Below the pieces are notes generated by a model. It was not told where the DNA came from and made no database searches. It saw only the letters and a program-made list of their open reading frames with translations. Below are positions 10,365 to 24,740 of a stretch of 64,000 nucleotides of DNA, in pieces. The DNA lies in contig JBBTQF010000012.1 of the NCBI GenBank assembly GCA_038065815.1, forward strand, positions 1,663 to 65,662, written 5' to 3'. Origin of the DNA: Patescibacteria group bacterium (GTDB lineage Bacteria; Patescibacteriota; Patescibacteriia; UBA9934; CAMTUG01). Each line of letters begins with the position of its first letter. The stretch's first letter is position 1. The position numbers were made by a program, and so were the translations under genes.

Positions 10365-11201
10365 CTACGAGCGACGCACGGAGCGGGCGACGGCCATGAA
10401 GTCAGCAATTTTTTGCGCGTCATATCGACGGGCGGCGACCACGATATTTGGACCAAGACGTTTGCTCAGGTCGACATCGCCCTCTTTGAAAGCGGTACCG
10501 ACAATTGTCGCGTCAAGGTACGGTGCAAACCGAGTGAAGTTCTCCGCGGTCATGCCGCTTCCCGTGAGCACGGCCGCGTCACCCGCCTCACGCACTGCCT
10601 CCGCACATTGTTCCACTGATGGAGGGTCACCGGTCCACTGCCCCGTGACAATAACACCATCCGCGCCAGACGCAGACGCCTCGCGCACAGACTCAACGAA
10701 TGGTCGCGGCGTGAGCATCGTCGCATGCTTCACCTGTACGTCCGCGAGAATTGCCACGCCCTCCGCGCCAAGCGCCGCGCGGGCGGCGAGCACAGCCGCT
10801 GGGTTGGCATAAAACTTCCCGTAGACCGTCTCGACAGAATCAACAAACACTGGCACGCGCACCATCACGCCGCCAAGCTTTTTGCATGCTTCGAACCCGA
10901 ACGCAAAATCGTTCCAGAGCGGCGTAATGCCCCAGGAGACATGCGTTTCTGGCACCAACACCTCAAGTAACTCCATGAAATGGGCACGCGTCTCTGGACG
11001 CATCTTCTCGTGCTTAGGCTTATCAAAATTGTTTTCAAAAAGAATGGCATCCACGCCGCCTTTCTGAAGGGCGCGTAGGTCCTGTTGCGCGCGCCCAAGG
11101 ACAACCGCCTTATCGCCCTCATAGTCTTCCGTCCCCTCAAGGGGGGAAAAGTGAATCATGCTGATCACCGCTGGCCGTACCTTCAAGGAGAATTTCTTCA
11201 T
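10365..11201 (-). CDS. BtpA/SgcQ-family TIM-barrel protein.
   Basis: The 278 aa start with an IHFSPLEG N-terminus and carry a GGVDAILFENNFDKP motif typical of the BtpA family. The gene is GC-rich, about 63 %. Confidence 0.5.
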   Translation of the reverse strand: MKKFSLKVRPAVISMIHFSPLEGTEDYEGDKAVVLGRAQQDLRALQKGGVDAILFENNFDKPKHEKMRPETRAHFMELLEVLVPETHVSWGITPLWNDFAFGFEACKKLGGVMVRVPVFVDSVETVYGKFYANPAAVLAARAALGAEGVAILADVQVKHATMLTPRPFVESVREASASGADGVIVTGQWTGDPPSVEQCAEAVREAGDAAVLTGSGMTAENFTRFAPYLDATIVGTAFKEGDVDLSKRLGPNIVVAARRYDAQKIADFMAVARSVRRS

Positions 11202-11261
11202 ATGATGACAGTATAGTATGGAAAAGGGCGCTCCGCGAGGGAGCGCCCGATTGAGTGCGGG

Positions 11262-12707
11262 CTACTGGGCGTTGAAGCGTCCGGAGGCCTTGCAAGTGAG
11301 CTGGACCTGGCTGGCGAGGAAAGCGGACACACGGCCTTCACGGAGCGCCTCGAGACAAATCCATGCGCAGTGCGCGAGTTTCTCGGAGTCCGGACCACGG
11401 CCAGCACGGAAACGCGCCAAATCATCGTCCATCATGCCGTTCGTGAGGTAGAGCGCGAGACCAGCGTTCATGGCGAGGTACTCCACGAGCTGACGGTCGC
11501 GGTCATCACAGCCAAGATGGACAGCAATACGATTGGCCTCCATGATCATGGCTTCTTCGTTGGGCACGAAGACGCTCATGGGGTCGCGGAACATAAGGCC
11601 AAAGCTCGCGGGCGTGAGCACCACGTTGGCGAGAAACTCGTCGCGCGCAGTGAAAGACATGAGCGAGGCAAAGGGCGAGAGCTCATCGAGCACGGCGAGG
11701 TCGCGGATGTGGCGGCTGTTGATCGCCTCATGCGCGTCGATGTGCTGGCTGAGGCCGCATACCACCGCGACGTTGCCGACGTTGTAGACGCCGTCCGCGT
11801 GCAGACGAGCGTAGGCGCGAGCAATTGTCTCCGGGTGCATCTTCTCGTTGACGCCGATCACCTTGTCCAAACGCGTGGCCGGGGACACGGGTGGCGTCAT
11901 GGGGCCGATGACGTGGTTGACGGTCTCACGGCGCGGCAGCAGGTGCGACAGGTCATGGATCGTCTTCCATGCGTGGGCGTCCGTGAAGTGGAAGCCGCTC
12001 ATCGCGAGCTCCTCCTGGACATCCCTCTTGGGGATGTCCACGATCACGCCCAGATTCTCGATCGCCTCCGTGGAGCCGACAGCCGAGGTGTTGCTGTACG
12101 AGCCGTGCTTGGCCGTGCGGTGGCCGAGGCTCGCGACCGTGAGGGCCGAGAGCGTGGAGCAGTTGATGGTCTTGCGGCGCACCGGGTCGCCGTTGACCAT
12201 CATCCCGCGGTCGCCACCCATGCCGCAGGTCTCGAGGACGCGTGGGCCGTAGTCCGGGAAGTGGATGATGTCCATCTGCGCGGCGGTCACCATACCAGCG
12301 ACCTCGTCCGGCGTAAGCTCGGCCCATGCCTCCTTCATGGCGAGGCCGGAGAGCATCTCGCGGGCGGCCATGCAGTCGCCGTCAGGACCCAGCGAGGCAT
12401 CCTTGAGGCAGTGGAACCGACGCTCGAGGTGGCCGTTGCTAGCGCGAAGAATGTAGCAGGTGGCAGCGAAGGCCTCCTGGAAGGTGAGGTGGCCACCGAG
12501 GGACGCCTTCACGAGCTGGCTGTAGCCGAACTCGCTCAGACAGCCAATGAGGCTGAGCTGCTTCGCGTTGGGCTGGCAGGGGTCATAGAGCGCCTCGCGC
12601 ATGGGGATCTTGGCCAGATAGCGCGCGCGGGCAGCCGCGAACTCAGGGCCGTGCATCCCCTGAACGAGATTGATCTTGCTGAGGGGCCTGCTGGCATGGT
12701 CGTTCAT
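11262..12707 (-). CDS. TrpD-family (glycosyltransferase family 3; anthranilate PRTase / nucleoside phosphorylase fold) protein with an N-terminal extension of about 130 aa.
   Basis: The motif CGMGGDRG...TINCSTLSALTVASLGHRTAKHGSYSNTSAVGSTEAIENLGV matches the TrpD GTGGD/KHGN region. It is 481 aa, about 65 % GC, with an AGGAGA Shine-Dalgarno 5 nt before the ATG. Confidence 0.6.
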   Translation of the reverse strand: MNDHASRPLSKINLVQGMHGPEFAAARARYLAKIPMREALYDPCQPNAKQLSLIGCLSEFGYSQLVKASLGGHLTFQEAFAATCYILRASNGHLERRFHCLKDASLGPDGDCMAAREMLSGLAMKEAWAELTPDEVAGMVTAAQMDIIHFPDYGPRVLETCGMGGDRGMMVNGDPVRRKTINCSTLSALTVASLGHRTAKHGSYSNTSAVGSTEAIENLGVIVDIPKRDVQEELAMSGFHFTDAHAWKTIHDLSHLLPRRETVNHVIGPMTPPVSPATRLDKVIGVNEKMHPETIARAYARLHADGVYNVGNVAVVCGLSQHIDAHEAINSRHIRDLAVLDELSPFASLMSFTARDEFLANVVLTPASFGLMFRDPMSVFVPNEEAMIMEANRIAVHLGCDDRDRQLVEYLAMNAGLALYLTNGMMDDDLARFRAGRGPDSEKLAHCAWICLEALREGRVSAFLASQVQLTCKASGRFNAQ

Positions 12708-13099
12708 GATGTCTCCTGGGGGCGTGAAAAGGAACGGTCGATCTGAGGCTTCCTAAACATAAAAGCCCCATCATCGCAAGCCTATGGGAATATAGGCTCA
12801 AGAGGACGGAGCTTCTCCGTGGTGCCACCTCTGATTATCCTCACGCGCGCCAAAACGCGCTTTGAGAAACTTTACGCACTCCGTGGATATGCGTTAGCCC
12901 TTGGTTACGGGGGCGTCCGGTCGGCCACAATAGCAGCCGACGTCTCACCGGGTCCAATTTCACGATCGCACCAGACAGGGCTCACACTATCTCCTGTTCG
13001 CTTTGCTGGCTCACGCTCGCTACTAACTCCCGGATCAATGACGTTGTCGATGAGAAGGAACTAAATTAACGATAGCAGGTCGAAAAAATCGTGTCAAAT

Positions 13100-13810
13100 C
13101 TATGCCTTGTTCTCGAGGAATTGGCATGTTTGTTCCAAAGCTACGGCAATAGCGGTTTCTAGACTATCACCAAGAATTATTCTTGCCACTGTGTGCGCAA
13201 AAAATGTGTCGCCTGCTCCAATCGTATCCTTCGTAGAGACAACGCGCGGTGGCTGAAACGACATGTGTCTTCCTTCTGTGTAAGCGTCGACCCCATTAGC
13301 CCCCTTTGTCACCAATAAAATACGCGTTTTTTGATCTTCAACACTTTCAGCTGGAATAAATGAAAGCTCCAGCTCGGTTGCTTTTAAGCACCGCACGTTT
13401 TTTATCCAATCTCCTTCAAATTCCTTCCAGAGTCGTTTCTGACCCGGAATATTTGGTGCACGGACAAAACCTTGAACATCCAGGTACAGCTCGTTGCATG
13501 TTTCAAAAACAGCAACTGGATCCCATTCACGGGACAGTGTTGATATAAGGGCTGATCCGCTTTTGCAGACAGGTACATTTTTATTCTGTGCAACTGGAGT
13601 GACACTACCAATCTCGCCTTGTTCGTTCACTTCGATACATACTTCAACAACTGGACCGACATGACAATGCTCCTCTATGCCCTGCATTTTCATAACGGCA
13701 GAAATAAACGTCGCCGGCCCCCCGATACGTTCGGAGGTTTTCCCCTGTTTATGGTCAATAACAACATCGTGAGCTACTGTTGAATACACGTCAATCGATG
13801 GTTGATTCAT
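13100..13810 (-). CDS. PfkB-family carbohydrate/nucleoside kinase (ribokinase-like), short form.
   Basis: PfkB signature-2 is DTIGAGDTFFAHTV and the length is 236 aa. Confidence 0.6.
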   Translation of the reverse strand: MNQPSIDVYSTVAHDVVIDHKQGKTSERIGGPATFISAVMKMQGIEEHCHVGPVVEVCIEVNEQGEIGSVTPVAQNKNVPVCKSGSALISTLSREWDPVAVFETCNELYLDVQGFVRAPNIPGQKRLWKEFEGDWIKNVRCLKATELELSFIPAESVEDQKTRILLVTKGANGVDAYTEGRHMSFQPPRVVSTKDTIGAGDTFFAHTVARIILGDSLETAIAVALEQTCQFLENKA

Positions 13811-13852
13811 AGGAAGAAATGAAGAGGGGAGCCGAGGGGCTCCCTTTTAAGT

Positions 13853-14662
13853 TCAGAGTTCTCCGCGAAGGATGCGCTCCAAGATGTCAACGACGCCCGT
13901 GGTGTAGTAACCGACGGAAACATAATCGGCACGTCCCTTGTAGTCTGCGTCAGCATTGCCAACCGCCGCATGCGTGACGCCCTTGCCGCAGTAATCGACC
14001 AGCGCATTGCCGATCATGACGATCCGGGAGTCGGGCACATGTATGCGCACGCAGTCCGTGCCCAGTCGCTTGGACGCCTCGGCCGCATGAATGGCGAGCA
14101 CCCCGTGCTGAAAGTTGGTCAGGACCCTGAGCTGGCTACGTTCGGACTTGGACTTGATCCAGGACTCCGCGCGTTCGAGAAGTGTGGTGTCCGGGATCAG
14201 TTCGCCTTTTTCTCCCGTATACCAGCAAAATCCGAGACAACTTGACCGCCGGCGAGTGTTGACCCCGATGATGCGGCGGCCAGTTTCTCCGAACCGTGCG
14301 ACGAGTCGATTTTCGACAACGTCGCCGAGCCAGATGTCTGCCGATTCCGCATCGGCGAGTCCAACCAGATCGTAGCGCAGGTGGTAAAGAAACTTCCGAA
14401 GCTCTTCACCAACTGCATACACAGGTTCTGCGCCCGGGCTGATAGAAACGACGGTGCCGAGCTCGGCAACGGTCGGTCCATCCATTCCAAGTCGTAGCTG
14501 AATGTCTGTGAGCGACCGCAGAGGAGAGTCCGAGTGGAGACCGATGCGGACCCCTTGCTTGCGTGCCCTCTGCACCACTTCGTTGATGCGCGAATCCGTG
14601 GTCTGCTCGGTGCAGACGTCCACCAGTGTTTCGTCTTTGTCGATGAGAACGAGCGTATTCAA
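13853..14662 (-). CDS. HAD-superfamily hydrolase, subfamily IIB (Cof-like phosphatase).
   Basis: HAD motif I is LIDKDETL (DxDxT-like). The C-terminal MIGNALVDY...AVGNA matches the HAD-IIB motif IV region. Confidence 0.5.
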   Translation of the reverse strand: MNTLVLIDKDETLVDVCTEQTTDSRINEVVQRARKQGVRIGLHSDSPLRSLTDIQLRLGMDGPTVAELGTVVSISPGAEPVYAVGEELRKFLYHLRYDLVGLADAESADIWLGDVVENRLVARFGETGRRIIGVNTRRRSSCLGFCWYTGEKGELIPDTTLLERAESWIKSKSERSQLRVLTNFQHGVLAIHAAEASKRLGTDCVRIHVPDSRIVMIGNALVDYCGKGVTHAAVGNADADYKGRADYVSVGYYTTGVVDILERILRGEL

Positions 14663-14718
14663 AGTACCTCTGAATGTGCAAAAGAATCTTAGAACACAAG
14701 AACCGTATTTGTCAAAGA

Positions 14719-15507
14719 CTAGTCCTGCTCCAAAACAGTTTTTCGCACGAGCTCAACTAGGCGCTCATGAAGTACACCATTTGAAGCAATGTGTCCGTGA
14801 ATAGGGCGATCGTAGCGTTGCTCATTTCCATAAACATCCGTCACTCGTCCACCCGCCTCTTCAATGATAATTTTTAACGCGGCACTATCGTGTGGCCTAT
14901 CACCAGGAAAAAGCGTAGCAACAAACTCGCCGCTTGCCACAAGCGCAGCCATGTAGGCAATAGAAGCAACGACCATAATCTTTGCCTGCTCGTTGCGCAA
15001 AAACTCTGTCATTACAGAAAAATTAAATGGTGCGGATTTCCAATAAACGATGCCGAACAACGACTGCTTAAATGTATCGCTCTGAGAAACCTGAATCGTT
15101 TTACCATTCAAAGAAGCACCTTTGCCCTTTTCTGCAACATATATACGATCCATAAACGGATCGTAAATGACACCGAGAACACTTTCACCTTTGTGCGTTA
15201 AGGCAAGTGAAAACGTGCACAACGGAATACCATGAGAAAAAGGTACGGTTCCATCTAGTGGATCACAGACCCATACGAACTCACTCTGCTCACTAAACGC
15301 GTCACCTTCTTCAGCAAGAACACTATGATCTGGAAAAGTGTTCTTTACTGCATCAATAACCATCTGGTTTATCAAAAGGTCTGATTCTGTAAGAGGAGTC
15401 GCATCAGACTTCCACTCTTTCTTCATGCCCAACATAAAGTTGCGCCGAATAACTTCACCGGCGGCGTGGGCGAGATCAACAGCAAATTGTTGATAATCAG
15501 ATGACAT
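14719..15507 (-). CDS. Inositol-monophosphatase family (IMPase/SuhB-like) phosphatase.
   Basis: The WVCDPLDGT motif matches the W-x-DP-x-DGT signature, and the metal-binding EE region is present. The length is 262 aa. Confidence 0.65.
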   Translation of the reverse strand: MSSDYQQFAVDLAHAAGEVIRRNFMLGMKKEWKSDATPLTESDLLINQMVIDAVKNTFPDHSVLAEEGDAFSEQSEFVWVCDPLDGTVPFSHGIPLCTFSLALTHKGESVLGVIYDPFMDRIYVAEKGKGASLNGKTIQVSQSDTFKQSLFGIVYWKSAPFNFSVMTEFLRNEQAKIMVVASIAYMAALVASGEFVATLFPGDRPHDSAALKIIIEEAGGRVTDVYGNEQRYDRPIHGHIASNGVLHERLVELVRKTVLEQD

Positions 15508-15544
15508 ATGTATGCAAATGGGCGGATGAGATCCGCCCGAGAAT

Positions 15545-16453
15545 CTAGGTCAAAAGTTTCATGCAACGACGGGCGTAGAACGCAGACCGCGTAGCGAACA
15601 TTCTCCCTTGTTTTGGATAGGGTTCACGACGGAAACGAGCGGAGAGCGCGCACTGGAGAGACCGACCCAGACTGAAGGCTGCCTCAAGATGTGCAGGCGA
15701 GCCTCCAAGTATCTGAGGCAATTGTTCGACCGCGAAGGTATGGAGGAGACGATACCCGCTGTTTGCCCCGGGTAAACGGTAGGCGTCGCGACATACGCCA
15801 GCGAAACAAGCGAGATCGATCGCAGGACATCCGAGGTTATCTCGAATTGGATCGACTTTTTTCACCCCACCATCCGTGAGAAAAAGATCGTCCGGTTTGA
15901 ACTCGAACGTGGAGAAGCAGGAACACATCCCCCCAAACATCTCGAACTCTGCTGCGCGAAAACGAGATACGAGGTTGGGTGGAATAAGATCTGCAAGGTA
16001 CCCTGCCCACTGTTCAACGACGAGGTCGCGCATGGCGCGAATGGCTGGAACAGGCGACTCTGTACTTAGACTCGCGCGATAGATGGGATCCATCGCAAGA
16101 AGTAGACGAGAGAAGCATTCCACAGGACGAGCCGCCGTCCTTGCGACATCTATGAAGTTCACGCCGCAATCCTCCATCAGGAGACACGGAACGCCCCGCA
16201 CTTGATGAAGGTCGAGCGTATTCGGAAGAAGACCACCAGCACCAATGCGGCGAAGGTTGATGTACCCCTCCCAGTTTGCTTCGACTTCTTTCTGAGCGAG
16301 CTCACCGTAGCCAATCTTTACGACCAGCGAACGACCATCCTGACGAACACGGTAGACCGTCTTGCAATTCTCCACGATGACGATCTGGTCACGAAACTCG
16401 AGATGTAGCGCTTCAGCAACAGAACCAAGAAGTACGTGAAGGTCCATGAGCAC
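15545..16453 (-). CDS. Protein-kinase-like / aminoglycoside-phosphotransferase-like fold protein (putative small-molecule kinase).
   Basis: Among the 302 aa, FEFKPDDLFLTDGG...DPIRDNL resembles the APH catalytic-loop/Brenner region. This is a weak assignment. Confidence 0.3.
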   Translation of the reverse strand: MLMDLHVLLGSVAEALHLEFRDQIVIVENCKTVYRVRQDGRSLVVKIGYGELAQKEVEANWEGYINLRRIGAGGLLPNTLDLHQVRGVPCLLMEDCGVNFIDVARTAARPVECFSRLLLAMDPIYRASLSTESPVPAIRAMRDLVVEQWAGYLADLIPPNLVSRFRAAEFEMFGGMCSCFSTFEFKPDDLFLTDGGVKKVDPIRDNLGCPAIDLACFAGVCRDAYRLPGANSGYRLLHTFAVEQLPQILGGSPAHLEAAFSLGRSLQCALSARFRREPYPKQGRMFATRSAFYARRCMKLLT

Positions 16454-16568
16454 TCCGAATGAACTGCATCTATCGTATCATAACTTTTTTTCTCGTCAAT
16501 GCTCGTCGAACCAAAACCATAGACATTTTTCTACACACCCGCTAGAGTACGTACGTTCCCAGAAACAA

Positions 16569-16595
16569 ATGGGGTCAGGTCTGGGATGTGGGATT
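16569..16595 (+). repeat. REP-like repeat copy (GGGGTCAGGTCTGGGATGTGGGA). It is the left half of an inverted REP doublet.
   Basis: It forms a roughly 22-bp inverted repeat with 16625..16652 across a 32-bp spacer. Confidence 0.55.
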
Positions 16596-16624
16596 TATTG
16601 AGTACAAAAGTTATTCAGAAAATA

Positions 16625-16652
16625 CCACATCACAGGCCTGACCCCATCCGCG
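16625..16652 (-). repeat. REP-like repeat copy (CCACATCACAGGCCTGACCCCATCC). It is the right half of the inverted doublet.
   Basis: See 16569..16595. Confidence 0.55.
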
Positions 16653-16725
16653 CCATCCGCGGCGCGGCGCGGTGTACGGTGTAGATCATCTGCGCGTATT
16701 TTGATACCGTACTAGCATAACATCT

Positions 16726-17388: not shown

Positions 17389-17389
17389 T

Positions 17390-17410: not shown

Positions 17411-17421
17411 CAAAACTGCTT

Positions 17422-17910: not shown

Positions 17911-17952
17911 AATCAGATGAATATATTTCAATATTAAATTATCATACATCTT

Positions 17953-17980: not shown

Positions 17981-18040
17981 AAGATAACTTTCTTAAAATG
18001 ACATTTTGGCTAAAGTTAGCCACTTCTTTAGACAAATCCA

Positions 18041-18068
18041 TTGACAAAAGGCCTTTTTGTGCTATATT
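18041..18068 (+). promoter_or_regulatory. Sigma70-like promoter TTGACA-16nt-TATATT, about 25 nt upstream of the 18092 ORF.
   Basis: Near-consensus hexamers are seen directly. Confidence 0.4.
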
Positions 18069-18091
18069 ATGTCTCCACCTAGAGGTCAATC

Positions 18092-18367: not shown

Positions 18368-18425
18368 CCCAGCTTCCGCCCGCTCTCGCAACCGCATCTC
18401 GTCTGAGATGCGGTTCGTGCGTTAA

Positions 18426-18971
18426 AAAGAGCTCGCGGCCGGAATCGCGGGTGGCGTGAAGAGCACAACTTGCGGGATTGGCACCAATAGGGCTGTCTAC
18501 GTAAAAGCAGACGGTTCGCTCTACCCCTGCGCAGATACCGCGGTGCCTCAATTCCGCCTCGGTAACCTGCGCACTGACTCCCTTCGCGAAATTTGGGAAC
18601 ATTCACCTGCCCTGCATGAGCTTCGGTCCCTCAACATCGACACCCTGAACCCACAATGCGCCGCCTGCGATGTCCGCTACCTCTGCGCTGGAAATTGCCG
18701 CGGAGAAAACTACCAGACGACCAAAGACCTGCGAAGCCCACACTTCAAGTGTGCCGAGATCCGCGATTCCATCCTGGAGCTGATGTGGATACTCACGGAA
18801 GCGCCCGACCTCTTCAAGTGCAAATCGAATCTCTGCACGAGACGGTTGCGGGCCCCTACGCCACCTCTGCATGACGTGCGACGCACAAATAGACGCCTAC
18901 CTGCCTGGACTACTCGGTCCGGGCAGTTTCTTTACAATCAAAATCAATCTGGGGCTTGTGAGCCTGTATGA
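18426..18971 (+). pseudogene. Remnant of a radical-SAM maturase; only the C-terminal SPASM/twitch auxiliary Fe-S domain survives.
   Basis: CGIGTNRAVYVKADGSLYPCADTAVPQFRLGNLRTDSLREIWEHSP...CAACDVRYLCAGNCRGENY carries the SPASM Cys pattern. The upstream in-frame stop is at 18423 and no CxxxCxxC radical-SAM core is present. The annotated start is GTG. Confidence 0.45.
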
Positions 18972-19598
18972 ATGAAATTGATAATCTCCCACGACCGATT
19001 CAATGCGAAGCCCAGCCTTACGAAGCCACACTTGCCACATGGGGAGGACAGGATATGGCACGACCAGACCATGACGCTTATCCACCAGTTCCAGTCGTTG
19101 CGCATCGAAGATGTAATTGGATTTTGGATTTTTTTGTAAATAACTCATAAGACTAAAAATGTTGTCTGTGTCCAAAAGAAGGCGGCCGCCGATCTTCATG
19201 TTGCGACTGATAGATAAGAGCGCTTTCTCTGGATCGATGCTCGCCAGGTCGGAAAAAAACCAGTAGGCACGGTCGTATTTTTTTTGAGGACGAGGTTAGT
19301 CACATCCGCCCAGAAGAACGTCGGTTGATGTTTGAGCGTCTTGTCGCTCGATTTTTTTGCCAGGGTGAGAAGATACGGGGAAAAATCAACCCCGTCCACG
19401 GAATATCCACGACGCGCCAGCGCCAGCACGTGGCGTCCTTGGCCGCAAGCGATATCTAATATCGATTGGCGTTTGTTCAACCCAAGTGCTTTACTAAAAA
19501 CGCAGTATCTTTTCCCACGTCTGCTTCTTGCAGAAATCGGGCATGTTCGCGCAAGTATGCCCCGTGCATCCCGTAATAATATTTTGTTCCTTTCGTCA
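18897..19598 (-). pseudogene. Class I SAM-dependent methyltransferase interrupted by two frameshifts.
   Basis: Frame A reads MTKGTKYYYGMHGAYLREHARFLQEADVGKDTAFLVKHLG* from the ATG at 19598. Frame B continues ...NKRQSILDIACGQGRHVLALARRGYSVDGVDF (motif I/post-I). Frame C (18897..19199) carries KIGGRLLLDT (motif III). Confidence 0.45.
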
Positions 19599-19648
19599 TA
19601 TCGGATGCGGGCTTTCGGGAGATAGTATAACACGGCTTTAGGCAGAAA

Positions 19649-19670
19649 TCGGGTCAGGCCGGGAATCCAA
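19649..19670 (+). repeat. REP-like copy (GGGTCAGGCCGGGAATCC).
   Basis: It shares the core. Confidence 0.45.
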
Positions 19671-19693
19671 ATTCCTGATTCCAATGCCTGATT

Positions 19694-19714
19694 CCAGACC
19701 TGACCCAATCCCTT
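19694..19714 (-). repeat. REP-like copy (AGACCTGACCCAATCCC).
   Basis: It shares the core. Confidence 0.45.
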
Positions 19715-19728
19715 ACAACGCACAATAA

Positions 19729-19775
19729 ACGGCCTGACCCCATTACTCCGACCCCATTACTCCCATCATCACAAC
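19729..19775 (-). repeat. REP-like copy with a duplicated tail (GGCCTGACCCCATTACTCCGACCCCATTACTCCCATCATCAC).
   Basis: It shares the core plus a CCCCATYAYTC sub-repeat also seen at 23941-23970. Confidence 0.45.
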
Positions 19776-20548
19776 GTGGACAAACACCATTCCTCCAATT
19801 GCGTGCGCGGAGTTGCGAGCAGTGCTTGTAAATCTAGTCCTCGAGTCGCCACAATTGATTCAATGATAGACAGGGCTATGAAATATCCCGCGCGATAGCG
19901 ATAAATATCGTCCGGATCGTTGGCAAAAAATAAGTCTAGCGCGAGTCCGTCAATGTCATTCCAGTGTTCGCGCATGAAGGTACGAAGAGCCGGCTGCTCC
20001 TGTACACAGGCATTCATCCAAACCATGCATTCTGCTTCGGGAATATAATCCGCCCAAAGAGCATCCTCGGCAGAAAAGCTCATCAGCGTTTTTGTCACAT
20101 ACAGAGCAACCCCCTCTGTCATCAGCTGCCTGCCGAGATGATTTTTCTCTTCGTGTGTGTGGAAAAAATATTCAGGGCGTGAGAGATAGTGAAGACCATG
20201 CACAATTTCGTGCGTTAAAAAAACGCCTACCTGCCGCTCGGTGGAGTAGGCCTCAAGCGGAATCCACACCAATGCGCGGTCGTCCTCAATAATGGCATGT
20301 CCGTTACTCGTTCCCTGACCGATCATCAAAACGAGGTCAATTTTATCAAGAGCAAAACCGTTTTCGGAAAAAGCTCTCTGTATATAAGGAAGGCGCGAGG
20401 ATATAAGAACGCGTGACTGTTGTATACGCTCCGTCTCATACGCAGGAATCTCACGCGTCTTTCGTTTGCCCCAATAGGAAAAGTAGTGCTCGAAAAGTTG
20501 AGTTCGGACAGGAGACGGCTGCTGATGCGTAAAATCAATAATGCGCAT
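19769..20548 (-). CDS. Putative zinc metallopeptidase (HExxH).
   Basis: THEIVHGLH within the 259 aa. Confidence 0.4.
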   Translation of the reverse strand: MRIIDFTHQQPSPVRTQLFEHYFSYWGKRKTREIPAYETERIQQSRVLISSRLPYIQRAFSENGFALDKIDLVLMIGQGTSNGHAIIEDDRALVWIPLEAYSTERQVGVFLTHEIVHGLHYLSRPEYFFHTHEEKNHLGRQLMTEGVALYVTKTLMSFSAEDALWADYIPEAECMVWMNACVQEQPALRTFMREHWNDIDGLALDLFFANDPDDIYRYRAGYFIALSIIESIVATRGLDLQALLATPRTQLEEWCLSTL

Positions 20549-20604
20549 AAAGGATGAGCCCGGCCCGCGCGTAACGCGGACCGGGCATGAGGTGGGTCGC
20601 TACT

Positions 20605-21270
20605 TCACGCCACCCGGCGGTTCGCCAGGTCGTCGGTGAGGGACCCGAAGTTGTTGAAGCTGTACCACAGCTCGGTCGAGATGAGCGCCGAGGCAAGGAA
20701 CAGGGCGTGGAAGTTGTGCCAGCCGGTGTAGAGCTTGGCGAACGCGGGGCGGATGTTGCCCACGCGGTTTTCCTCGAGCACCCGATGCACCTGGCCGGGG
20801 AGGGCCACGACGATCTCGATCTGCGTGATGAGGCGCTCGGTGTCGGACCTGAGCATCGCGATGCGCTCGTCGAACGTGTCGAGCATGCGGTAGAAGCCAC
20901 CGGAGCACATGATCTCCTGCGCCTCGTTCCACCTGATCTGGTCGACGCGCTGGCTCGTGACGAGGGAGTCGCCGACCGCCGCCAGGTCCACCGTCTTGAG
21001 CGACGGCAGATCCTCGTAGCCGTTCTCGTCCATCTGGCCGCGCAGGTCGGCGACACAGGCGGACATGCTGTTGAGCTCGTCGATGGAGGCGCGCAGGTTC
21101 TCGATGATGGGCGCCGTGTCACCGGTCTCACCGTCGAGCTCGCACAGGATGACGTCCTCCAGTCTCACGTTGGCCGTCTCCAGCCGCACGGTCGCGAGCG
21201 ACAGGAAGCGCGAGAGACGCGTCGAGTTCTTCAGGTAGCTACTACACGGTTGGTGATTTTTACCACCCAT
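20605..21270 (-). CDS. Hypothetical protein in a GC-rich island with a C-terminal hydrophobic helix.
   Basis: The 221 aa have a sensible amino-acid composition and an AAGGA Shine-Dalgarno 9 nt upstream. The overlapping plus-strand ORF 20587..21348 is Arg/Val/Gly-rich antisense-like. Confidence 0.3.
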   Translation of the reverse strand: MGGKNHQPCSSYLKNSTRLSRFLSLATVRLETANVRLEDVILCELDGETGDTAPIIENLRASIDELNSMSACVADLRGQMDENGYEDLPSLKTVDLAAVGDSLVTSQRVDQIRWNEAQEIMCSGGFYRMLDTFDERIAMLRSDTERLITQIEIVVALPGQVHRVLEENRVGNIRPAFAKLYTGWHNFHALFLASALISTELWYSFNNFGSLTDDLANRRVA

Positions 21271-21502
21271 GGCGGTTTATCCTTTTCCCCGATTGGGGAC
21301 GTTATGCACGAGAATGTACCCTTTCATTTTCACACACGTTTCCAATAGATGTCAACGACAAAGAAATGGGGGTGAGGCACGGATAACGGGTTTCGGGTAA
21401 CTCGAATAACCGCCGTCCTCGAGGTACGGGCGGGGGCTTGATTCTATTGGTCCATCCCATGCCTCGGGGACGGGATTGGGCAGTGCAAGTGATTCCCGAT
21501 TC

Positions 21503-21525
21503 CCGGCCTGACCCCATCTGCACTA
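21503..21525 (-). repeat. REP-like copy (GGCCTGACCCCATCTGCAC).
   Basis: It shares the core. Confidence 0.45.
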
Positions 21526-21530
21526 AAACC

Positions 21531-21556
21531 CAAGACCTGATCCCATTCCCGCACCA
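21531..21556 (-). repeat. REP-like copy (AGACCTGATCCCATTCCCGCAC).
   Basis: It shares the core. Confidence 0.4.
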
Positions 21557-21786
21557 GATTCAACGATCTGGGCGAACTCGTAGAAGCCAACCACACCCAG
21601 ATGCGGTACTATAATCATCGATGGATCCACTCGAGCCTCAAAATGCCGCCAGTAGCCTTCCGAACCAGGCACGAAAATAAAACAACGGCCATGATGGCCG
21701 CCTAACTCAACTCATTCATCGTCGGTTTAAGGAAACAAAAGTGTCTAAAAAATGAGGGCCATACCACTCCGCCTTCGTCGTGTTGA

Positions 21787-23004
21787 TTGTTGCAAAACCT
21801 TGTGAACCAAACTGTCGTTAAAAAGAACATTTTAAACTACTATCTTGCGCACGTGTTTAGTGGTGTATCTTTTATTTTACCAATTACCGTTCTTTACTAC
21901 TCTTCTTTTGGGTTGTCTTTTCTCGCCATTGGTTCGTTGGAATCTATTTTCCTTCTTGTCGGTTTGGTCTTCGAAATACCTACAGGCGTTATTGCGGATC
22001 TTATTGGTCGCAGGCGAATGAGCGGATTGGGTATGCTTTTGATCGCCTTTGGAATGCTCGTTGTTGGTCTTGGTAGCACTTATCTGGCTTTTGTTGTTGG
22101 ACAACTTCTTTTTGGAATTGGAGCAGCAATGCGATCCGGTGCCGACGCGGCACTTATGTATGATTCTTTGGACGCTCATAATCAGGCCGATCGCTACGGT
22201 CGTGTTGAAGGTCGCAGTTTTGCTTTATTTAGTATCTTTGGGGCCATAGCCGCTCCAATAGGGGCTTGGCTTTTTGTTATTAACCGTCGACTACCATTTT
22301 TTTTGGACGCCATTTTTATTACTATTGCCGCTCTATTTTATGGGCTAATGGTGGAGGTGAGGCGGCTGAAGTTAGAACAGCGGCCCAAACCTTTTAAGCA
22401 AATTTTTCTGGAGGGCATCAAAGATATTATTACTAAACCGATTGTCGGATGGTACATTGCGACGACAGTCTTTCTCTCATTGATTGCTGCTGTCTTTGTC
22501 AGTCTCATCAACCAGCCACTATTGGTTGCTAGCGGGCTTTCCGTTCAAGAAATTGGGTACCTCTTTGTTCCTGTCTTGATACTACAGGCCATTGTGTCCG
22601 TTTTCGCTGAGAAGGTAGAGAAGCGATTAAAGGAGCGGCTGTGTCTTTTTATTATCATTCTTCTTCCTGGGATTTCTTTATTGCTGATGGGGACAAAAGT
22701 TGCTTTGCTCATTTTTCTCGGTCTTCTTCTTTTTAGCGGCAACAAGGGTTTCCACTATCCTATTATGAAACAATTTCTTCAACACCGTCTTAATACAGGC
22801 ACTCGAGCCACAACGTTGTCAATACAAAACTTTATTGATAGTCTCGCTGGGATTATTTTCTTGCCGGTGTTTGGATTTTTGCTTGATTCGGCCTCGATTG
22901 TGACAAGTACTCGTTGGATCGGTGTAGGCGCACTAATTGTTGGACTGTTTCTTTTATTATCTCGAAAATGGAGTCAGATCACTGGTATTTTTAGAAGGAT
23001 CTAA
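21787..23004 (+). CDS. MFS-family transporter.
   Basis: The 405 aa contain about 12 TM segments and the MFS motif GVIADLIGRRRMSGLG between TM2 and TM3. Confidence 0.65.
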   Translation: MLQNLVNQTVVKKNILNYYLAHVFSGVSFILPITVLYYSSFGLSFLAIGSLESIFLLVGLVFEIPTGVIADLIGRRRMSGLGMLLIAFGMLVVGLGSTYLAFVVGQLLFGIGAAMRSGADAALMYDSLDAHNQADRYGRVEGRSFALFSIFGAIAAPIGAWLFVINRRLPFFLDAIFITIAALFYGLMVEVRRLKLEQRPKPFKQIFLEGIKDIITKPIVGWYIATTVFLSLIAAVFVSLINQPLLVASGLSVQEIGYLFVPVLILQAIVSVFAEKVEKRLKERLCLFIIILLPGISLLLMGTKVALLIFLGLLLFSGNKGFHYPIMKQFLQHRLNTGTRATTLSIQNFIDSLAGIIFLPVFGFLLDSASIVTSTRWIGVGALIVGLFLLLSRKWSQITGIFRRI

Positions 23005-23032
23005 GCGCCGACGCACTTAGATCCTTATTTCG
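22997..23032 (+). terminator. Rho-independent terminator of the MFS gene (GGATCTAAG-cgccgacgca-CTTAGATCC then TTATTT).
   Basis: The 9-bp stem includes the stop codon and is followed by a T-rich run. Confidence 0.5.
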
Positions 23033-23036
23033 AACC

Positions 23037-23970
23037 GGATGGGGTCAGGCCTGTGATCTGTGATGAGATAGCTTGGCTATGCGACAAACAGTAGTTCCTG
23101 CCAAGCCCAAAAACTTTGCTACTGCTTTCCCGGAATACTCAAAATAATTAAGTGCCAGCGCGATCGCCGCATCACGCTCCTGTTGAGTCGCAACTCCATC
23201 AAACAAAACTTTCAATGTTGGCCTACCGTCCATCCTTTGTGCGGCAACAATCTCATCTGCTGAGACACTCATATCAACTCGATCGCGCACTTCATGAATG
23301 AACTGCTCCGATCCTAAAATTCCACCCTTGCCAACAGCATCAAAAGGCGACGTACGCCCGATGCCGTCTTGAATAAAACTTCGATATGCTTTCTCCCTGC
23401 CTTGTTTACGATTGCTAAAATGTCCCAATGCATCCTTCTTCGCCAACCAATCTGGCGCCACCTCCAGACCAGCCAAGGCTCGATAGCTGCTCCATTGATA
23501 ATCCGACGGGTCATCAACCATTTTTGCCCGCACAGGATTAAGCACCACATAACGAATAACCTCGAGAAGATATTCCTGCTCCTCAACCAAAAAAGCCTTA
23601 AATCGCCCTTGAAATAAGTGGCCGACGTGTTTGTGTTTGGCGTTGTACCATTGCGTGTAAGTCGCGTTAAGATTTTGCATTCCTTTGGACAACGTGGGAT
23701 CGATCGTCTCAATAACAAAATGATAGTGATTGCCCATCAAACAATAACTGTAGCAACGCCAATTAAACTTTTTCAGTACTGACGAAAAAATGAAAAGAAA
23801 CTGTTCGCGATCTTGATCGGAAAGAAAAATTGAACTCCTTGCGTTGCCGCGAGTAGTGATGTGATAAAAAGCACCTGGAAATTCGATGCGTAGAGGGCGC
23901 ATTAATGTATGGTATCACACATCACAGACCTGACCCCATCATTCTCATCCCACCGACCCCATCCCTGTGG
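23037..23970 (-). mobile_element. REP-RAYT-REP unit: a REP-associated tyrosine transposase gene flanked by inverted REP copies.
   Basis: The forward REP is 23041-23067 (GGGGTCAGGCCTGTGATCTGTGATGAG) and the reverse REP is 23916-23970. The Y1 HuH transposase lies between them. Its stop codon TGA is supplied by the REP itself. Confidence 0.65.
23045..23902 (-). CDS. rayT: REP-associated tyrosine transposase (RAYT; IS200/IS605-like Y1 HuH transposase, PF01797-like).
   Basis: The N-terminal FYHITTRGN, the HuH motif GNHYHFVIE, and the catalytic-Tyr region YVVLNPVRAKMV...YQWSSYRA match the widespread MARPLRIEYPGAVYHVTSRGN...DNHYHLL...NPVRAGMV transposase family. Confidence 0.7.
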   Translation of the reverse strand: MRPLRIEFPGAFYHITTRGNARSSIFLSDQDREQFLFIFSSVLKKFNWRCYSYCLMGNHYHFVIETIDPTLSKGMQNLNATYTQWYNAKHKHVGHLFQGRFKAFLVEEQEYLLEVIRYVVLNPVRAKMVDDPSDYQWSSYRALAGLEVAPDWLAKKDALGHFSNRKQGREKAYRSFIQDGIGRTSPFDAVGKGGILGSEQFIHEVRDRVDMSVSADEIVAAQRMDGRPTLKVLFDGVATQQERDAAIALALNYFEYSGKAVAKFLGLAGTTVCRIAKLSHHRSQA

Positions 23971-24068
23971 ATAAACTGCTATTGACGAAGGGGGATTGAT
24001 TTATTTGATGAAATATGGTACGTTCAAATCGAGGCAATCAACCAATGCTGGCCTCCACAGCATCAATC

Positions 24069-24087
24069 TTCCGGAAACCTTCCGGAA
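24069..24087 (+). promoter_or_regulatory. Tandem self-complementary octamers TTCCGGAA-acc-TTCCGGAA immediately upstream of the Shine-Dalgarno (AGAGGTGA) of the lipoprotein gene. It is an operator-like site.
   Basis: Seen directly at 24069-24076 and 24080-24087. Confidence 0.35.
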
Positions 24088-24098
24088 AGAGGTGAGTC

Positions 24099-24740
24099 AT
24101 GAGCAACCTGCTCCTCGCCCTGCTGATCTTCGGATGCCAGGGCCCCATCAACGGCTCGGAGAACCCGGGCGATACCAACCCGTCCGACGCGGACACCGAC
24201 GCCGACGCGGATGCGGACGAGACGGAAGTCACGTTCACGTCCACGGTCACCTACGCGCAGCGCGTCGACGAAGAGATTGTCGTCAGCGTAGTGGAGACCG
24301 ACGGAATCGGCTTCAACGTGCTCGATGGCGACGACACGGACGACGATGTCCTGTGGAACGCACAGACGGTCTACACCGACATGATCGTGCTCGACGAATC
24401 CTGGGCGCGGGTCGACCACACGGACAGCTACGGCGTGCACTGGGTGAGCGATCTGGTGGACGTCAACAGCGCCGCGGTGCAGCTCAAGCCCTGCGTGGAC
24501 CTCACCGGCACGTGGAACTGCTACAACCCCGAACGGCCCGAAGGCGCCGACGACGAAGAGTTCGAGATGAGCTCCTGCACCGCGAACACGACGATGGACG
24601 AAGACGTGAAGACGGACGGATACCACTTCACTTCGGAAGACAACGACGGGTTCATGTCGCAGGACGGCAAGATGCTCGACCTCAACGCATACGGCGACAC
24701 AGGCAACCTGCTCGGCCAGATGATCTGCGACAAGCAGTAG
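24099..24740 (+). CDS. Acidic lipoprotein (lipobox LIFGC) in a GC-rich patch.
   Basis: MSNLLLALLIFGCQG carries the signal and lipobox, a strong Shine-Dalgarno is present, and a DADTDADADADETE acidic run follows. The overlapping Arg-rich ORFs are rejected. Confidence 0.5.
   Translation: MSNLLLALLIFGCQGPINGSENPGDTNPSDADTDADADADETEVTFTSTVTYAQRVDEEIVVSVVETDGIGFNVLDGDDTDDDVLWNAQTVYTDMIVLDESWARVDHTDSYGVHWVSDLVDVNSAAVQLKPCVDLTGTWNCYNPERPEGADDEEFEMSSCTANTTMDEDVKTDGYHFTSEDNDGFMSQDGKMLDLNAYGDTGNLLGQMICDKQ

Follow-up and report, generated by a model that had tools for sequence, protein, structure and literature searches.

Compositional mosaic and gene turnover in a flexible chromosomal region of an Uhrbacteria-like member of the Patescibacteria

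Conserved blocks and variable slots

The window, the stretch of about 64 kb to which our analysis of this genome refers, covers almost an entire contig and stems from a Hainich groundwater metagenome, and its host is an Uhrbacteria-like member of the Patescibacteria (CPR). Three conserved blocks frame two slots, slot A (9381–19768) and slot B (21271–24098), whose content is different in every relative. The left block (to 9380) begins with a T4SS-like cluster on the reverse strand (120–7518), recognised by its Pfam families. It comprises a VirB4/TraG-type ATPase (120–2042), a TraC-like gene (2051–2764), a PrgI-like gene (2771–3202) and genes for 480 aa (3226–4668) and 947 aa (4675–7518). The third position GC content (GC3) of the cluster is 0.45–0.56. 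For the 947-aa protein 655 homologues were found, and the named ones belong to Patescibacteria. The block ends with an M23 peptidase gene (7614–9380, reverse strand, PF01551), which encodes an acidic C-terminal half and has a promoter-like site at 9617–9589. The central block (19769–21270) is a pair of reverse-strand genes: a 259-aa gene with an HExxH motif (19769–20548) and its partner, a 221-aa gene (20605–21270). The latter represents an uncharacterised family of Patescibacteria; its product has MGGxNHQPC as N-terminus, and a promoter-like site lies at 21355–21326. The 221-aa protein is predicted to be a helical bundle (AF2 model, pLDDT 89); a comparison of this model with the PDB gave no match. 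The right block begins with a forward-strand gene for a 213-aa acidic lipoprotein (24099–24740, lipobox LIFGC), followed on the reverse strand by the gene of a giant 3050-aa protein (24872–34024, GC3 0.492).

Within the slots we found 12 REP copies, a RAYT gene, three genes that are truncated, a putative toxin-antitoxin pair and a metabolic block. The latter lies in slot A on the reverse strand. Its TrpD-like gene (11262–12707, 481 aa, PF00591) has a phosphoribosyltransferase fold and reaches 95.9 bits with TIGR01245, below the cut-off of 199. A terminator-like hairpin (11248–11226) separates it from a BtpA/SgcQ-family gene (10365–11201; PF03437, 146.9 bits), which is its conserved partner in 44 loci. 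The TrpD-like gene is preceded by a T-box leader (12799–13047) with a probable UGG (Trp) specifier and a promoter-like site at 13097–13069. This leader scores 73.9 bits with RF00230 (gathering score 93), and leaders with 57.8–91.8 bits were found in the relatives L003, L004, L005, L008 and L009; in the first three of these the leader and the TrpD-BtpA module stand in differing contexts. Then come a short PfkB-family kinase gene (13100–13810; 236 aa; PF00294, match confined to the C-terminal part), a HAD-IIB-like hydrolase gene (13853–14662, PF08282), a gene for an inositol-monophosphatase/HisN-like phosphatase, here IMPase (14719–15507; PF00459; TIGR02067 with 153 bits, under the cut-off), and a 302-aa gene without assigned family (15545–16453, GC3 0.538), a homologue of which adjoins the HAD and TrpD-like genes in L004. 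Further to the right follow a forward-strand AAA_18 P-loop kinase-like gene (16726–17388, GC3 0.525) and, on the reverse strand, the putative type II toxin-antitoxin pair (17422–17982) of a RelE-like gene (17422–17691; weak match to TIGR02385, 17.6 bits) and an RHH-like gene (17692–17982). A forward-strand unit (18041–18367) combines a near-consensus promoter, TTGACA-16-TATATT, with a gene for a 91-aa membrane protein (18092–18367). Slot B carries a forward-strand MFS transporter gene (21787–23004), which is absent at the equivalent place in L074.

REP elements, RAYT and gene remnants

The preliminary description had reported REP copies and gene remnants, and both could be confirmed. Against an expectation of 0.7, the motif CAGRYCTGACCCMAT occurs 13 times in the window, and 12 of these lie within 9747–23939. 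They are positioned at block borders, as had been proposed, but within the block from BtpA to the 302-aa gene the shifts in composition are not marked by REPs. Single copies were found at the left edge of slot A (9747–9761, reverse strand), between the NUDIX remnant and BtpA (10318–10332, forward strand) and 3' of the AAA_18 gene (17391–17405). Two inverted copies form a REPIN at 16569–16647, which folds into a long hairpin (dG –27 kcal/mol, z = –7.5); an Rfam match to mir-3817 at this position is a false positive caused by the hairpin. A REPIN-like cluster of three copies (19648–19743, folding z = –4.0) marks the right edge of slot A and two forward-strand copies (21503–21546) the left edge of slot B. 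A REPIN occupies the place equivalent to the latter in L073, and an independent Logan contig, L159, breaks at the REPs on both sides, 19648–19743 and 21503–21546. The RAYT gene, for a REP-associated tyrosine transposase (23045–23902, reverse strand, PF01797, GC3 0.437), forms a unit (23038–23940) with inverted REPs on either side (23038–23064 and 23914–23940). It shows HYH and RYVxxNP motifs and scores 73.9 bits with NF047646 (cut-off 80).

All three remnants are located in slot A. The NUDIX remnant (9912–10265, reverse strand) lacks its 5' part: the ORF as called (9912–10184) covers only profile positions 49–123 of PF00293, and the Nudix box extends upstream in the same frame, without a start codon, up to a stop near 10266–10268. 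A forward-strand ORF (18456–18971; PF13186, TIGR04085) consists of a SPASM domain only; it covers the C-terminal parts of radical SAM/SPASM maturase models and has no radical SAM domain. Of a reverse-strand methyltransferase gene (19196–19723) only the region of the SAM-binding motif is left, with REP sequence over its 5' part.

Base composition of the window

GC-rich patches had been described, and GC3, once computed, is indeed far from uniform. Twenty-eight genes of the window outside the region served as background (0.511 ± 0.047, range 0.44–0.65). Four genes reach 0.84–0.92, with z from +5.5 to +7: the TrpD-like gene (GC 0.64, GC3 0.842, z +6.3), the 221-aa gene (GC 0.64, GC3 0.919, z +7.0), the 213-aa lipoprotein gene (GC 0.63, GC3 0.897, z +6.6) and the 91-aa gene (GC3 0.902, z +5.5). 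Within each gene GC3 is uniform and the shifts fall exactly at the gene borders; GC of the intergenic DNA ranges from 0.36 to 0.68. Two of the patches need amending. That at 10365–12707 also includes BtpA, which is only moderately enriched (0.645, z +2.4), and that at 18092–18971 joins the 91-aa gene to the SPASM remnant (0.616). PfkB and MFS had been counted as neighbours of near-background composition; instead they lie below the background, as does IMPase (0.39–0.40, z about –2; PfkB 0.392, IMPase 0.403, MFS 0.399). Long antisense or alternative-frame ORFs exist as well, e.g. at 11370–12746 and 20587–21348; their arginine content is 10–12%, and that of the alternative frame 23996–24850 is 25%. 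Two further GC-rich genes had been overlooked, the M23 gene (7614–9380; 0.747, z +4.6), outside the range of the preliminary description, and the HAD gene (13853–14662; 0.674, z +2.9).

L002, an independent assembly, agrees with the window in gene order and shares 99.2% identity across 13.5 kb, which rules out an assembly artefact as source of the mosaic. The 110 differences between both sequences directly reveal a replaced allele: 84 fall into the HAD gene, which is 10% divergent in this second strain, and the other approximately 11 kb contain none, apart from those in the 947-aa gene, in the T-box leader and at the start of IMPase.

Inherited and exchanged components

The interpretation as an insertion hotspot is supported, in the form of an insertion and rearrangement hotspot, by synteny with L074, L157 and L073, in which flanks are kept and slot contents are unrelated, as well as by the REPs at block borders, the RAYT with its inverted REPs, the toxin-antitoxin pair, the truncated genes and the gene-sized allele replacement. 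L074 retains the order giant protein, lipoprotein, 221-aa, 259-aa, M23, an 883-aa gene and the next gene, with orthologues of the T4SS-like cluster in synteny; its slots measure 0.3 and 3.7 kb versus 2.8 and 10.4 kb in the window, and its giant protein shares 32–35% identity (GC3 0.51). The cluster is syntenic in L157 too, where M23, a 945-aa and a 461-aa gene are kept and the genes upstream are unrelated. In L073 the unit of promoter and 91-aa gene is found on the opposite side of the 221/259-aa pair; the promoter is 91% conserved, but the coding sequence differs strongly and likewise has a high GC3 (0.93). The window represents a type of flexible genomic region that is already known. For Patescibacteria from aquifers genomic islands have been described, with transfers mostly between Patescibacteria (PMC12455944).

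The further claim of several independent acquisitions lacks support for the genes richest in GC. M23 and the 221-aa gene occupy equal syntenic places in diverged relatives and are GC3-rich there: M23 has 0.765 in L157 (60% identity) and 0.734 in L074 (36–44% identity), with adjoining genes at 0.45 in the window, 0.45 in L157 and 0.53 in L074. The 221-aa gene has 0.84 in L073 and 0.76 in L074 against 0.47 and 0.39 for the adjoining 259-aa gene (0.496 in the window), and exceeds the median of its locus, taken like all backgrounds of relatives from ±10 kb around the gene, in 28 of 35 loci from several clades. TrpD-like exceeds the adjacent BtpA in 28 of 29 loci (e.g. 0.84, 0.74, 0.84 and 0.71 versus 0.65, 0.43, 0.52 and 0.36, the last being 0.34 if the whole called ORF is counted, with concordant protein distances), following TrpD-like GC3 = 0.14 + 1.00 × BtpA GC3 across loci (r = 0.82). 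The named homologues of TrpD-like are again Patescibacteria, as are all those found for the 221-aa protein. In these pairs of window and relative, four-fold sites are at or near chance identity, though tests for saturation have little power where genes are rich in GC. Since the excess of M23, the 221-aa gene and TrpD-like is shared by relatives with saturated synonymous sites, it appears to be inherited and actively maintained and no relic of a recent import. Residual synonymous identity is slightly higher in GC-rich genes than in the genes beside them (for M23 0.49, with 0.36 expected, p < 0.001; for TrpD-like versus L004 0.49 against 0.42, p = 0.006), and the former may therefore have been shared between lineages more recently. 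For the 213-aa and 91-aa genes orthologues are not demonstrable and there are positional counterparts only; in L074 the former has as its counterpart a gene for a 230-aa acidic lipoprotein (GC3 0.81) without significant sequence similarity.

The explanation we favour, with a probability of roughly 0.6 for the whole, is a two-layer mosaic in which the genes richest in GC would be long-standing residents rather than recent imports. One layer would be inherited, its GC3 richness being a property of gene families or syntenic positions; TrpD-like, the 221-aa gene and M23 would belong here, and probably the lipoprotein and 91-aa genes. The other layer would be exchanged, with intermediate and GC-poor cargo of lineage- or strain-specific composition: HAD (0.67–0.73 here versus 0.405 in the nearest L004 homologue), the entire BtpA module, PfkB, IMPase and MFS. 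Gene- or module-sized homologous recombination among Patescibacteria differing in GC content may have supplied it, accompanied by REP-bounded rearrangements; uniformly GC-rich Patescibacteria exist, e.g. L150, L016 and L017. For none of the cargo genes was a donor identified. The module of T-box(Trp), TrpD-like and BtpA is positioned differently in different relatives, here within a slot subject to turnover. Base composition, synteny, the anatomy of REPs and RAYT, the allele replacement between strains and the GC3 offsets across families are direct observations. We infer that a persistent force keeps the genes of the inherited layer GC3-rich, and that the cargo genes owe their composition to recombination and to transfer among members of the phylum.

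A compositional mosaic between conserved flanks

The overall GC content of the window is 0.503. GC3, the GC content at third codon positions, was computed per ORF, with the ORFs chosen by a filter on GC1 and GC2, and was compared to 28 background genes outside 7.6–24.8 kb. This set includes the genes for GroEL, NusA, RF1, three aminoacyl-tRNA synthetases and a giant protein as well as T4SS-like genes, and has a GC3 of 0.511 ± 0.047. Far above this value are the genes for a TrpD-like protein (11262–12707, minus strand; GC3 0.842, z = +6.3), a 91-aa membrane protein (18092–18367; 0.902, z = +5.5), a 221-aa protein (20605–21270, minus strand; 0.919, z = +7.0), an acidic 213-aa lipoprotein (24099–24740, plus strand; 0.897, z = +6.6) and an M23 peptidase (7614–9380; 0.747, z = +4.6). 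Less elevated are the genes for a HAD protein (13853–14662, minus strand; 0.674, z = +2.9) and BtpA (10365–11201, minus strand; 0.645, z = +2.4), and PfkB, IMPase and MFS lie under the background (0.39–0.40, z about −2). An atypical composition, as in genomic islands, is thus present, with z from +4.6 to +7.0 in four to five genes and about −2 in three. The GC-rich genes prefer C and G at four-fold sites (C4 0.5–0.58, G4 0.27–0.42, A4 0.00–0.07), and Lys/(Lys+Arg) is low in several of them. GC3 is flat within genes, the steps fall on gene borders and the spacers are not GC-rich. Therefore, the mosaic of GC-rich patches noticed in the preliminary description is real, and GC3 per ORF is far from uniform. 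Some details need correction: BtpA is only moderately enriched, the patch at 18092–18971 consists of the 91-aa gene and a SPASM-only remnant, M23 and HAD count among the GC-rich genes as well, and PfkB and MFS lie under the background instead of at it.

The mosaic extends over two slots of variable content and their conserved flanks. The left flank consists of a VirB4/TraG-type ATPase, TraC-like and PrgI-like genes, a 480-aa gene, a 947-aa gene and the M23 peptidase. In slot A (9381–19768), a 5'-truncated NUDIX gene is followed by BtpA, the TrpD-like gene, a short PfkB kinase, HAD, an IMPase/HisN-like phosphatase and a 302-aa gene, and then by an AAA_18 kinase-like gene, a putative RelE/RHH-like toxin-antitoxin pair, the 91-aa gene, a SPASM-only remnant and a methyltransferase fragment. 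The toxin gene scores 17.6 bits against the RelE_StbE cut-off of 27.9, the antitoxin has no family match, and the two genes abut at 17691/17692. The SPASM-only ORF and the methyltransferase fragment adjoin each other (18456–19723), and the best NCBIfam matches of the latter include a RiPP methyltransferase; together the two resemble the remains of a small gene cluster for peptide modification. A middle block, with a 259-aa HExxH gene (19769–20548, minus strand) and the 221-aa gene, separates slot A from slot B (21271–24098; MFS and RAYT). The right flank is formed by the lipoprotein and a 3050-aa protein.

Three homologous loci from relatives allow a comparison of gene order. In L074 (GCA_964365275.1, like other records used here from Hainich) the giant protein, an acidic lipoprotein and the orthologues of the 221-aa (62 %) and 259-aa (52 %) proteins are followed by 3.7 kb of small ORFs, M23 (36–44 %), an 883-aa gene and the next gene; hence the flanks are present and the contents of both slots absent. 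L157 carries M23 (60 % identity to the window counterpart), a 945-aa gene (56 %) and a 461-aa gene (61 %), and upstream of M23 it has GCS2, tryptophan dioxygenase, class Ib tRNA synthetase, PPDK-like and LMWPc genes and no homologues of slot A. Its slot adjoining M23 (4650–6790) encodes a Trp/Tyr-type class Ib tRNA synthetase, tryptophan 2,3-dioxygenase and a tRNA, so that two relatives hold different tryptophan-related genes at one chromosomal place. The closest relative is L073, whose 221-aa gene is 83 % identical at the nucleotide level. There, a REPIN upstream of the 221-aa gene is followed by a promoter and gene matching window positions 18041–18367, which means that this unit sits on the opposite side of the 221/259 pair. 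Altogether, the contents of slots A and B are absent at the equivalent places of L074, L157 and L073, while M23, the 221-aa gene and the lipoprotein position are syntenic. The proposal of an insertion hotspot therefore holds: the flanks are kept and the slot content differs.

Two of the GC-rich genes need a comment. The 213-aa lipoprotein and the gene at the same position in L074 cannot be regarded as homologous, as their similarity is not significant (E = 1.6). For the unit with the 91-aa gene (18041–18367, plus strand; positions 1–184 in L073), the near-consensus promoter and ribosome-binding region is 91 % identical between the window and L073; the coding sequences are almost completely different from the second codon on, and GC3 is at least 0.90 in both. 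By eye, both versions resemble PQ-loop proteins. No further copies of this promoter were found upstream of the other GC-rich genes, and it was rejected as a cassette common to them.

For aquifer Patescibacteria, genomic islands have been reported, with transfers mainly within the phylum (PMC12455944). The region resembles such flexible islands in its conserved flanks, relative-specific content, atypical composition, mobile-element gene, putative toxin-antitoxin pair, gene remnants and exchange partners mostly inside the phylum. It differs from them by the lack of an integrase (among the ORFs scanned), of long flanking direct repeats and of a tRNA attachment site, the only tRNA genes of the window being located at 46.9–47.1 kb. 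It differs also in that the most atypical genes belong to the conserved flanks and deviate in the relatives as well; composition-based island calling would thus mislabel them. The feature is a real compositional mosaic in a flexible, REP/RAYT-populated region of a Patescibacteria genome, and as such belongs to a known kind in a little-studied phylum. A literature search found no report on GC3 mosaics in Patescibacteria.

REP elements, exchanged alleles and a T-box module

The REP motif (CAGRCCTGACCCCAT) has 13 matches in the 64 kb examined, compared to 0.7 expected, and 12 of these fall within a 14-kb span (9747–23939). The putative RAYT gene (23045–23902) matches PF01797 (E = 8e-13), reaches 73.9 bits with NF047646 (cut-off 80) and encodes an HYH motif and an RYVxxNP tyrosine motif; it is bracketed by inverted REPs whose arms (23038–23064 and 23914–23940) are 93 % complementary. 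Folding yields a REPIN at 16569–16647 (dG −27 kcal/mol, z = −7.5) and z = −4.0 for a REP cluster at 19648–19743. An Rfam match to mir-3817 (16566–16650) corresponds to the REPIN hairpin and was rejected as a microRNA. As in described REPIN-RAYT systems (PMC3116915, PMC3337134), there is a single putative Y1 (HUH) RAYT-type transposase flanked by inverted REPs, paired REPs form long hairpins and every copy is intergenic. The described systems are mainly proteobacterial, whereas the host here is a Patescibacterium, and the 12 clear copies in the 64 kb examined are clustered in 14 kb around the RAYT gene instead of being dispersed. A megablast search of 10–25 kb against E. coli genomes gave no match, so that an enterobacterial source was rejected, and a literature search found no report of REP/RAYT in Patescibacteria. 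The REPs part the region into blocks: M23, the NUDIX remnant, BtpA to the 302-aa gene, AAA_18, the toxin-antitoxin pair to the methyltransferase fragment, 259–221, MFS, RAYT and the lipoprotein. Inside the block from BtpA to the 302-aa gene, no REPs were found between the alternating compositions. A Logan contig identical to 19636–21504 has both its ends at REPs.

Two other repeats of the window may be mentioned here. Upstream of groES (40156–40443), a 27-nt inverted repeat (40503–40665; 93 % complementary, arms 109 nt apart) encloses a 24-nt palindrome; no Rfam family matches it, and by eye it is unlike CIRCE. At the right end, a tandem array with a 15/27-nt period and units like TCGGCTACTGGYTCY (63812–63994) lies probably inside an ORF running off the window.

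Recombination can be observed directly in one of the cargo genes. The independent contig L002, from a second strain of the same aquifer, is 99.2 % identical to window positions 1262–14815. Out of 110 differences, 84 fall into HAD, between 13935 and 14657, with 55 at third codon positions and 29 amino-acid changes; the others are in the T-box leader (12), the 947-aa gene (8) and the start of the IMPase gene (6), and the remaining ~11 kb show none. The HAD allele of this strain is 10 % divergent and has a GC3 of 0.726 compared to 0.674 in the window. The end of the L002 contig falls inside the divergent tract (window 13935–14760). HAD thus differs between the two strains by a replaced allele of gene size. 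Relatives differ in the GC3 of HAD, of the 302-aa gene and of BtpA: HAD has 0.67–0.73 here and 0.405 in another locus (L004), and the 302-aa gene 0.54 compared to 0.68 in its homologue. These three genes, and likewise PfkB, IMPase and MFS with their GC3 under the background, could still owe their composition to transfer.

The TrpD-like protein was found identical on contig CAYHTD010000001.1 (69.9 kb) of MAG GCA_964359465.1, most of which the window spans (window x = contig 66840 − x), and in an independent ENA contig from Hainich groundwater. With 95.9 bits it does not reach the equivalog cut-off of TIGR01245 (199) and is assigned only to the Glycos_transf_3 fold family (PF00591, 77.5 bits vs. 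27). BtpA clearly exceeds the gathering score of PF03437 (146.9 bits vs. 30) and is slightly short of TIGR00259 (145.2 vs. 153.4). Ahead of the two genes, a T-box leader (RF00230; 12799–13047, minus strand) contains the T-box sequence AGAGGUGGCACCACGG. Corresponding leaders were found in five relatives, at L003 2883–3119, L004 8438–8669, L005 9659–9901, L008 9686–9882 and L009 2292–2527. All six matches are under the Rfam gathering score of 93 at E-values from 1e-10 to 1e-19; the window leader has 73.9 bits (E = 1e-14), and those of L003, L004 and L005 are marginally short with 90.8–91.8 bits. The specifier loop, GAAAU-UGG-A, is located directly 5' of a CCCGG stem and is kept in four of the five relatives (UGG-G in L008). 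The specifier codon, assigned by eye from the alignment, is probably UGG, which points to tRNA-Trp. In the 60-nt spacer between the TrpD-like gene and BtpA, a strong terminator-like hairpin (11226–11248, minus strand; 9 bp with 8 G-C pairs, followed by TTTTCC) suggests that the two genes may not be equally expressed. As in T-box-controlled tryptophan genes of Firmicutes and related bacteria, a T-box with a UGG-like specifier precedes a gene of the TrpD family. Different from these, the gene is merely TrpD-like, its partner is BtpA instead of other trp genes, and the host is a Patescibacterium. A literature search found no report of T-boxes in Patescibacteria.

The module has different neighbourhoods in L003, L004 and L005. 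After removal of the family offset described below, its GC3 is still 0.13–0.19 above the window background, and it is missing at this place in L074 and L157; both facts make it plausible that the module moved into slot A from a Patescibacterium of somewhat higher GC content. Uniformly GC-rich relatives do exist, namely L150 (GC3 0.8–0.9; its GroEL shares 72 % identity with the window protein), L016 and L017. Many contigs with a Patescibacteria-type TrpD-like–BtpA pair (L009, L010, L015, L016, L030 and others) bear titles such as 'uncultured Gammaproteobacteria', 'Pseudomonadales' or 'Alphaproteobacteria'; they are records of co-assembled MAGs and their titles look unreliable.

GC3 excess in orthologues and gene families

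The most GC-rich genes show their excess also in relatives, and next to the same ordinary neighbours. GC3 of M23 is 0.75, 0.77 and 0.73 in the window, L157 and L074, compared to 0.45, 0.45 and 0.53 in the adjacent orthologues of the 947-aa gene. For the 221-aa gene the values are 0.92, 0.84 and 0.76 (window, L073, L074) compared to 0.50, 0.47 and 0.39 for the adjacent 259-aa gene, and at the lipoprotein position 0.90 and 0.81 (window, L074). The TrpD-like gene has 0.84, 0.74, 0.84 and 0.71 (window, L003, L004, L005) and the adjacent BtpA 0.65, 0.43, 0.52 and 0.36. The M23 and 221-aa orthologues occupy the same syntenic places, and the protein identities of the TrpD-like/BtpA pair are concordant (76/74, 61/68 and 58/57 %). 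Searches with the TrpD-like, 221-aa and 947-aa proteins did not lead to a distant donor of matching composition: the homologues with a named source were from Patescibacteria (for the TrpD-like protein Uhrbacteria, Paceibacterota, Azambacteria and others), and the closest ones sit in likewise mosaic contigs of middle GC content.

In two cases the excess extends to the family. Over 29 non-redundant loci with at least 34 % identity, GC3 of the TrpD-like gene follows that of the adjacent BtpA with a slope of 1.00 and an offset of 0.14 (r = 0.82), the difference being positive in 28 of the 29; more distant homologues than these have no offset. The 221-aa family comprises uncharacterised proteins about 223 aa long, in which the N-terminus MGGxNHQPC is invariant and a FLASSLISTE motif is conserved. 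Its members exceed the median GC3 of their locus in 28 of 35 metagenome loci (median +0.085, maximum +0.46, p = 3e-4) and the adjacent 259-aa homologue, which is the partner gene in close relatives, in six out of six. The GC3-rich members are scattered over a neighbour-joining tree, and the idea of one transferred clade was rejected. A phage origin of the family was rejected as well, as only one viral contig among 2.9 million contained a relative. The AF2 model is a four-helix bundle (pLDDT 89), for which Foldseek found only generic helical bundles in the PDB (best E = 0.14). Two members show the reverse of the usual pattern: L080 10001–10669 has a GC3 of 0.29 in surroundings of 0.64 (−0.35) and L122 10001–10651 one of 0.54 in surroundings of 0.71 (−0.17).

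In pairs with L003, L004 and L074, four-fold sites at identical residues agree about as often as they would after shuffling within codon families, and this applies to GC-rich and GC-normal genes alike. By the standard amelioration argument, a relic of one ancestral import should then have converged to the host value. Acquired genes reportedly converge to the composition of the host, according to the model of Lawrence and Ochman. The genes studied here share with this model the GC3 off the host value and some shift in amino-acid use, but the departure persists in orthologues across synonymously saturated lineages. Residual synonymous identity is slightly higher in the GC-rich genes than in their neighbours for the same genome pairs, which fits either constraint or biased conversion on these sites, or a more recent exchange of these genes between lineages.

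Possible origins of the excess and its meaning

Our tentative reading of the conserved, gene-specific GC3 excess, to which we assign a probability of roughly 0.35, is that in Uhrbacteria-like Patescibacteria certain gene families hold a heritable GC3 set-point far above that of the genome, through a process targeted to genes. These families would be the TrpD-like genes, the MGGxNHQPC 221-aa family, M23 beside the T4SS-like cluster and neighbouring surface proteins. The excess, +0.14 to +0.4, would outlast a complete turnover of synonymous sites and lead to sharp steps between adjacent genes. Its cause might be, for instance, selection acting at the mRNA level, or GC-biased gene conversion in genes which naturally competent cells repeatedly replace by recombination.

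Several independent acquisitions, as originally suggested, are not borne out for the most GC-rich genes, since syntenic orthologues are GC3-rich too, homologues belong to Patescibacteria and the excess is family-wide. In its full form that view takes each patch as a separate and fairly recent import from a high-GC donor into a REP-marked hotspot of a genome of ~50 % GC, not yet adjusted. The extreme GC3 with its sharp steps at gene borders would agree with it, as would the variable slot content, the mobile repeats, RAYT, toxin-antitoxin pair and remnants, the low Lys/(Lys+Arg) of several GC-rich genes and the elevated TrpD-BtpA module absent at this place in L074 and L157. However, M23, the 221-aa gene and the lipoprotein position belong to the conserved flanks and not to the slots, and are GC3-rich in L074, L157 and L073; for M23 and the 221-aa gene this holds at the same syntenic positions in synonymously saturated relatives. 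The excess of the TrpD-like gene over BtpA is a family trait, the homologues found are all from Patescibacteria, the identity ladders (77, 72, 62 % for the 221-aa and 76, 72, 60 % for the TrpD-like protein) resemble that of the organismal relatives, and composition changes between BtpA and the 302-aa gene without REPs at the borders. We consider this view unlikely. The opposite possibility, a wholly endogenous mosaic with a set-point for each gene and no need for transfer, maintained either by GC-biased gene conversion of often-recombining genes or by selection acting on mRNA or expression, appears improbable as well. Such conversion, or selection for GC, has been hypothesised for bacteria (PMC4450053), and the region shares with that case a gene-specific GC3 excess not explained by expression and evidence of recombination. 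The family-wide offsets, the conserved steps between adjacent genes and the slightly lower synonymous divergence of the GC-rich genes, expected under constraint, speak for it. Against it stand the GC3 of HAD, the 302-aa homologue and BtpA, which is not conserved, the HAD allele replaced between strains, the differing slot contents and those 221-aa members which are GC-poorer than their surroundings. Moreover, the reported effects of such conversion in bacteria amount, to our knowledge, to a few percent and not to 30–40 points, far less than the +0.14 to +0.4 found here.

The remaining explanations are weaker still. The left third of the window (1 to ~24.8 kb) could be an integrative conjugative element, with the T4SS-like genes for transfer and the mosaic genes as cargo from multiple hosts; the VirB4/TraG-type ATPase, the TraC-like and PrgI-like genes and the M23 hydrolase adjoin the variable region, in which a toxin-antitoxin pair and a transposase are present. 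But integrase, relaxase, attachment repeats and a tRNA gene at the border were not found. Synteny of the T4SS-like cluster, of M23 and of the giant protein extends to diverged relatives, and 655 homologues of the 947-aa protein were found across Patescibacteria. This pattern suggests a core system of the chromosome, and we regard such an element as quite improbable. That the GC-rich genes are highly expressed, their GC-ending codons reflecting translational selection, would suit the near-consensus promoters which several of them possess. GroEL, NusA and the aminoacyl-tRNA synthetases, however, have a GC3 of 0.44–0.57 and flat four-fold codon use (GroEL 0.56), compared to the skewed use in the GC-rich genes, which makes translational selection an unlikely cause of the inherited excess. 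In the only two loci where such genes were found, GroEL of L150 and EF-Tu of L053 are within the spread of their neighbours, and a TrpD-like protein, a HAD hydrolase and a small membrane protein have functions atypical of abundant proteins; for the mosaic as a whole we see very little chance for this explanation. Finally, as the source is a metagenome assembly, populations of different GC content could have been joined in a chimera. The agreement with L002 argues against this: an independent one-sample ENA assembly has the same order over 13.5 kb with 99.2 % identity and spans five composition changes, the Logan contig matches the 221/259 step at 100 % identity, and relatives from other assemblies show these steps too. 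A chimera is thus extremely improbable.

The REP/RAYT family and the T-box(Trp)–TrpD-like–BtpA module carry two well-studied systems into Patescibacteria. Horizontal transfer in metagenome-assembled genomes is commonly called from composition. In this region, recent import is least likely for the very genes that deviate most in composition, and real turnover is found among mildly atypical genes. If heritable set-points exist, GC3 steps would be false 'foreign DNA' signals for composition-based island finders, and should family-specific offsets be common in Patescibacteria, island predictions for the phylum would need synteny controls. Steps of 30–40 points in GC3 that persist over saturated divergence would offer a clean natural setting in which to test selection or biased conversion as forces on bacterial GC content.
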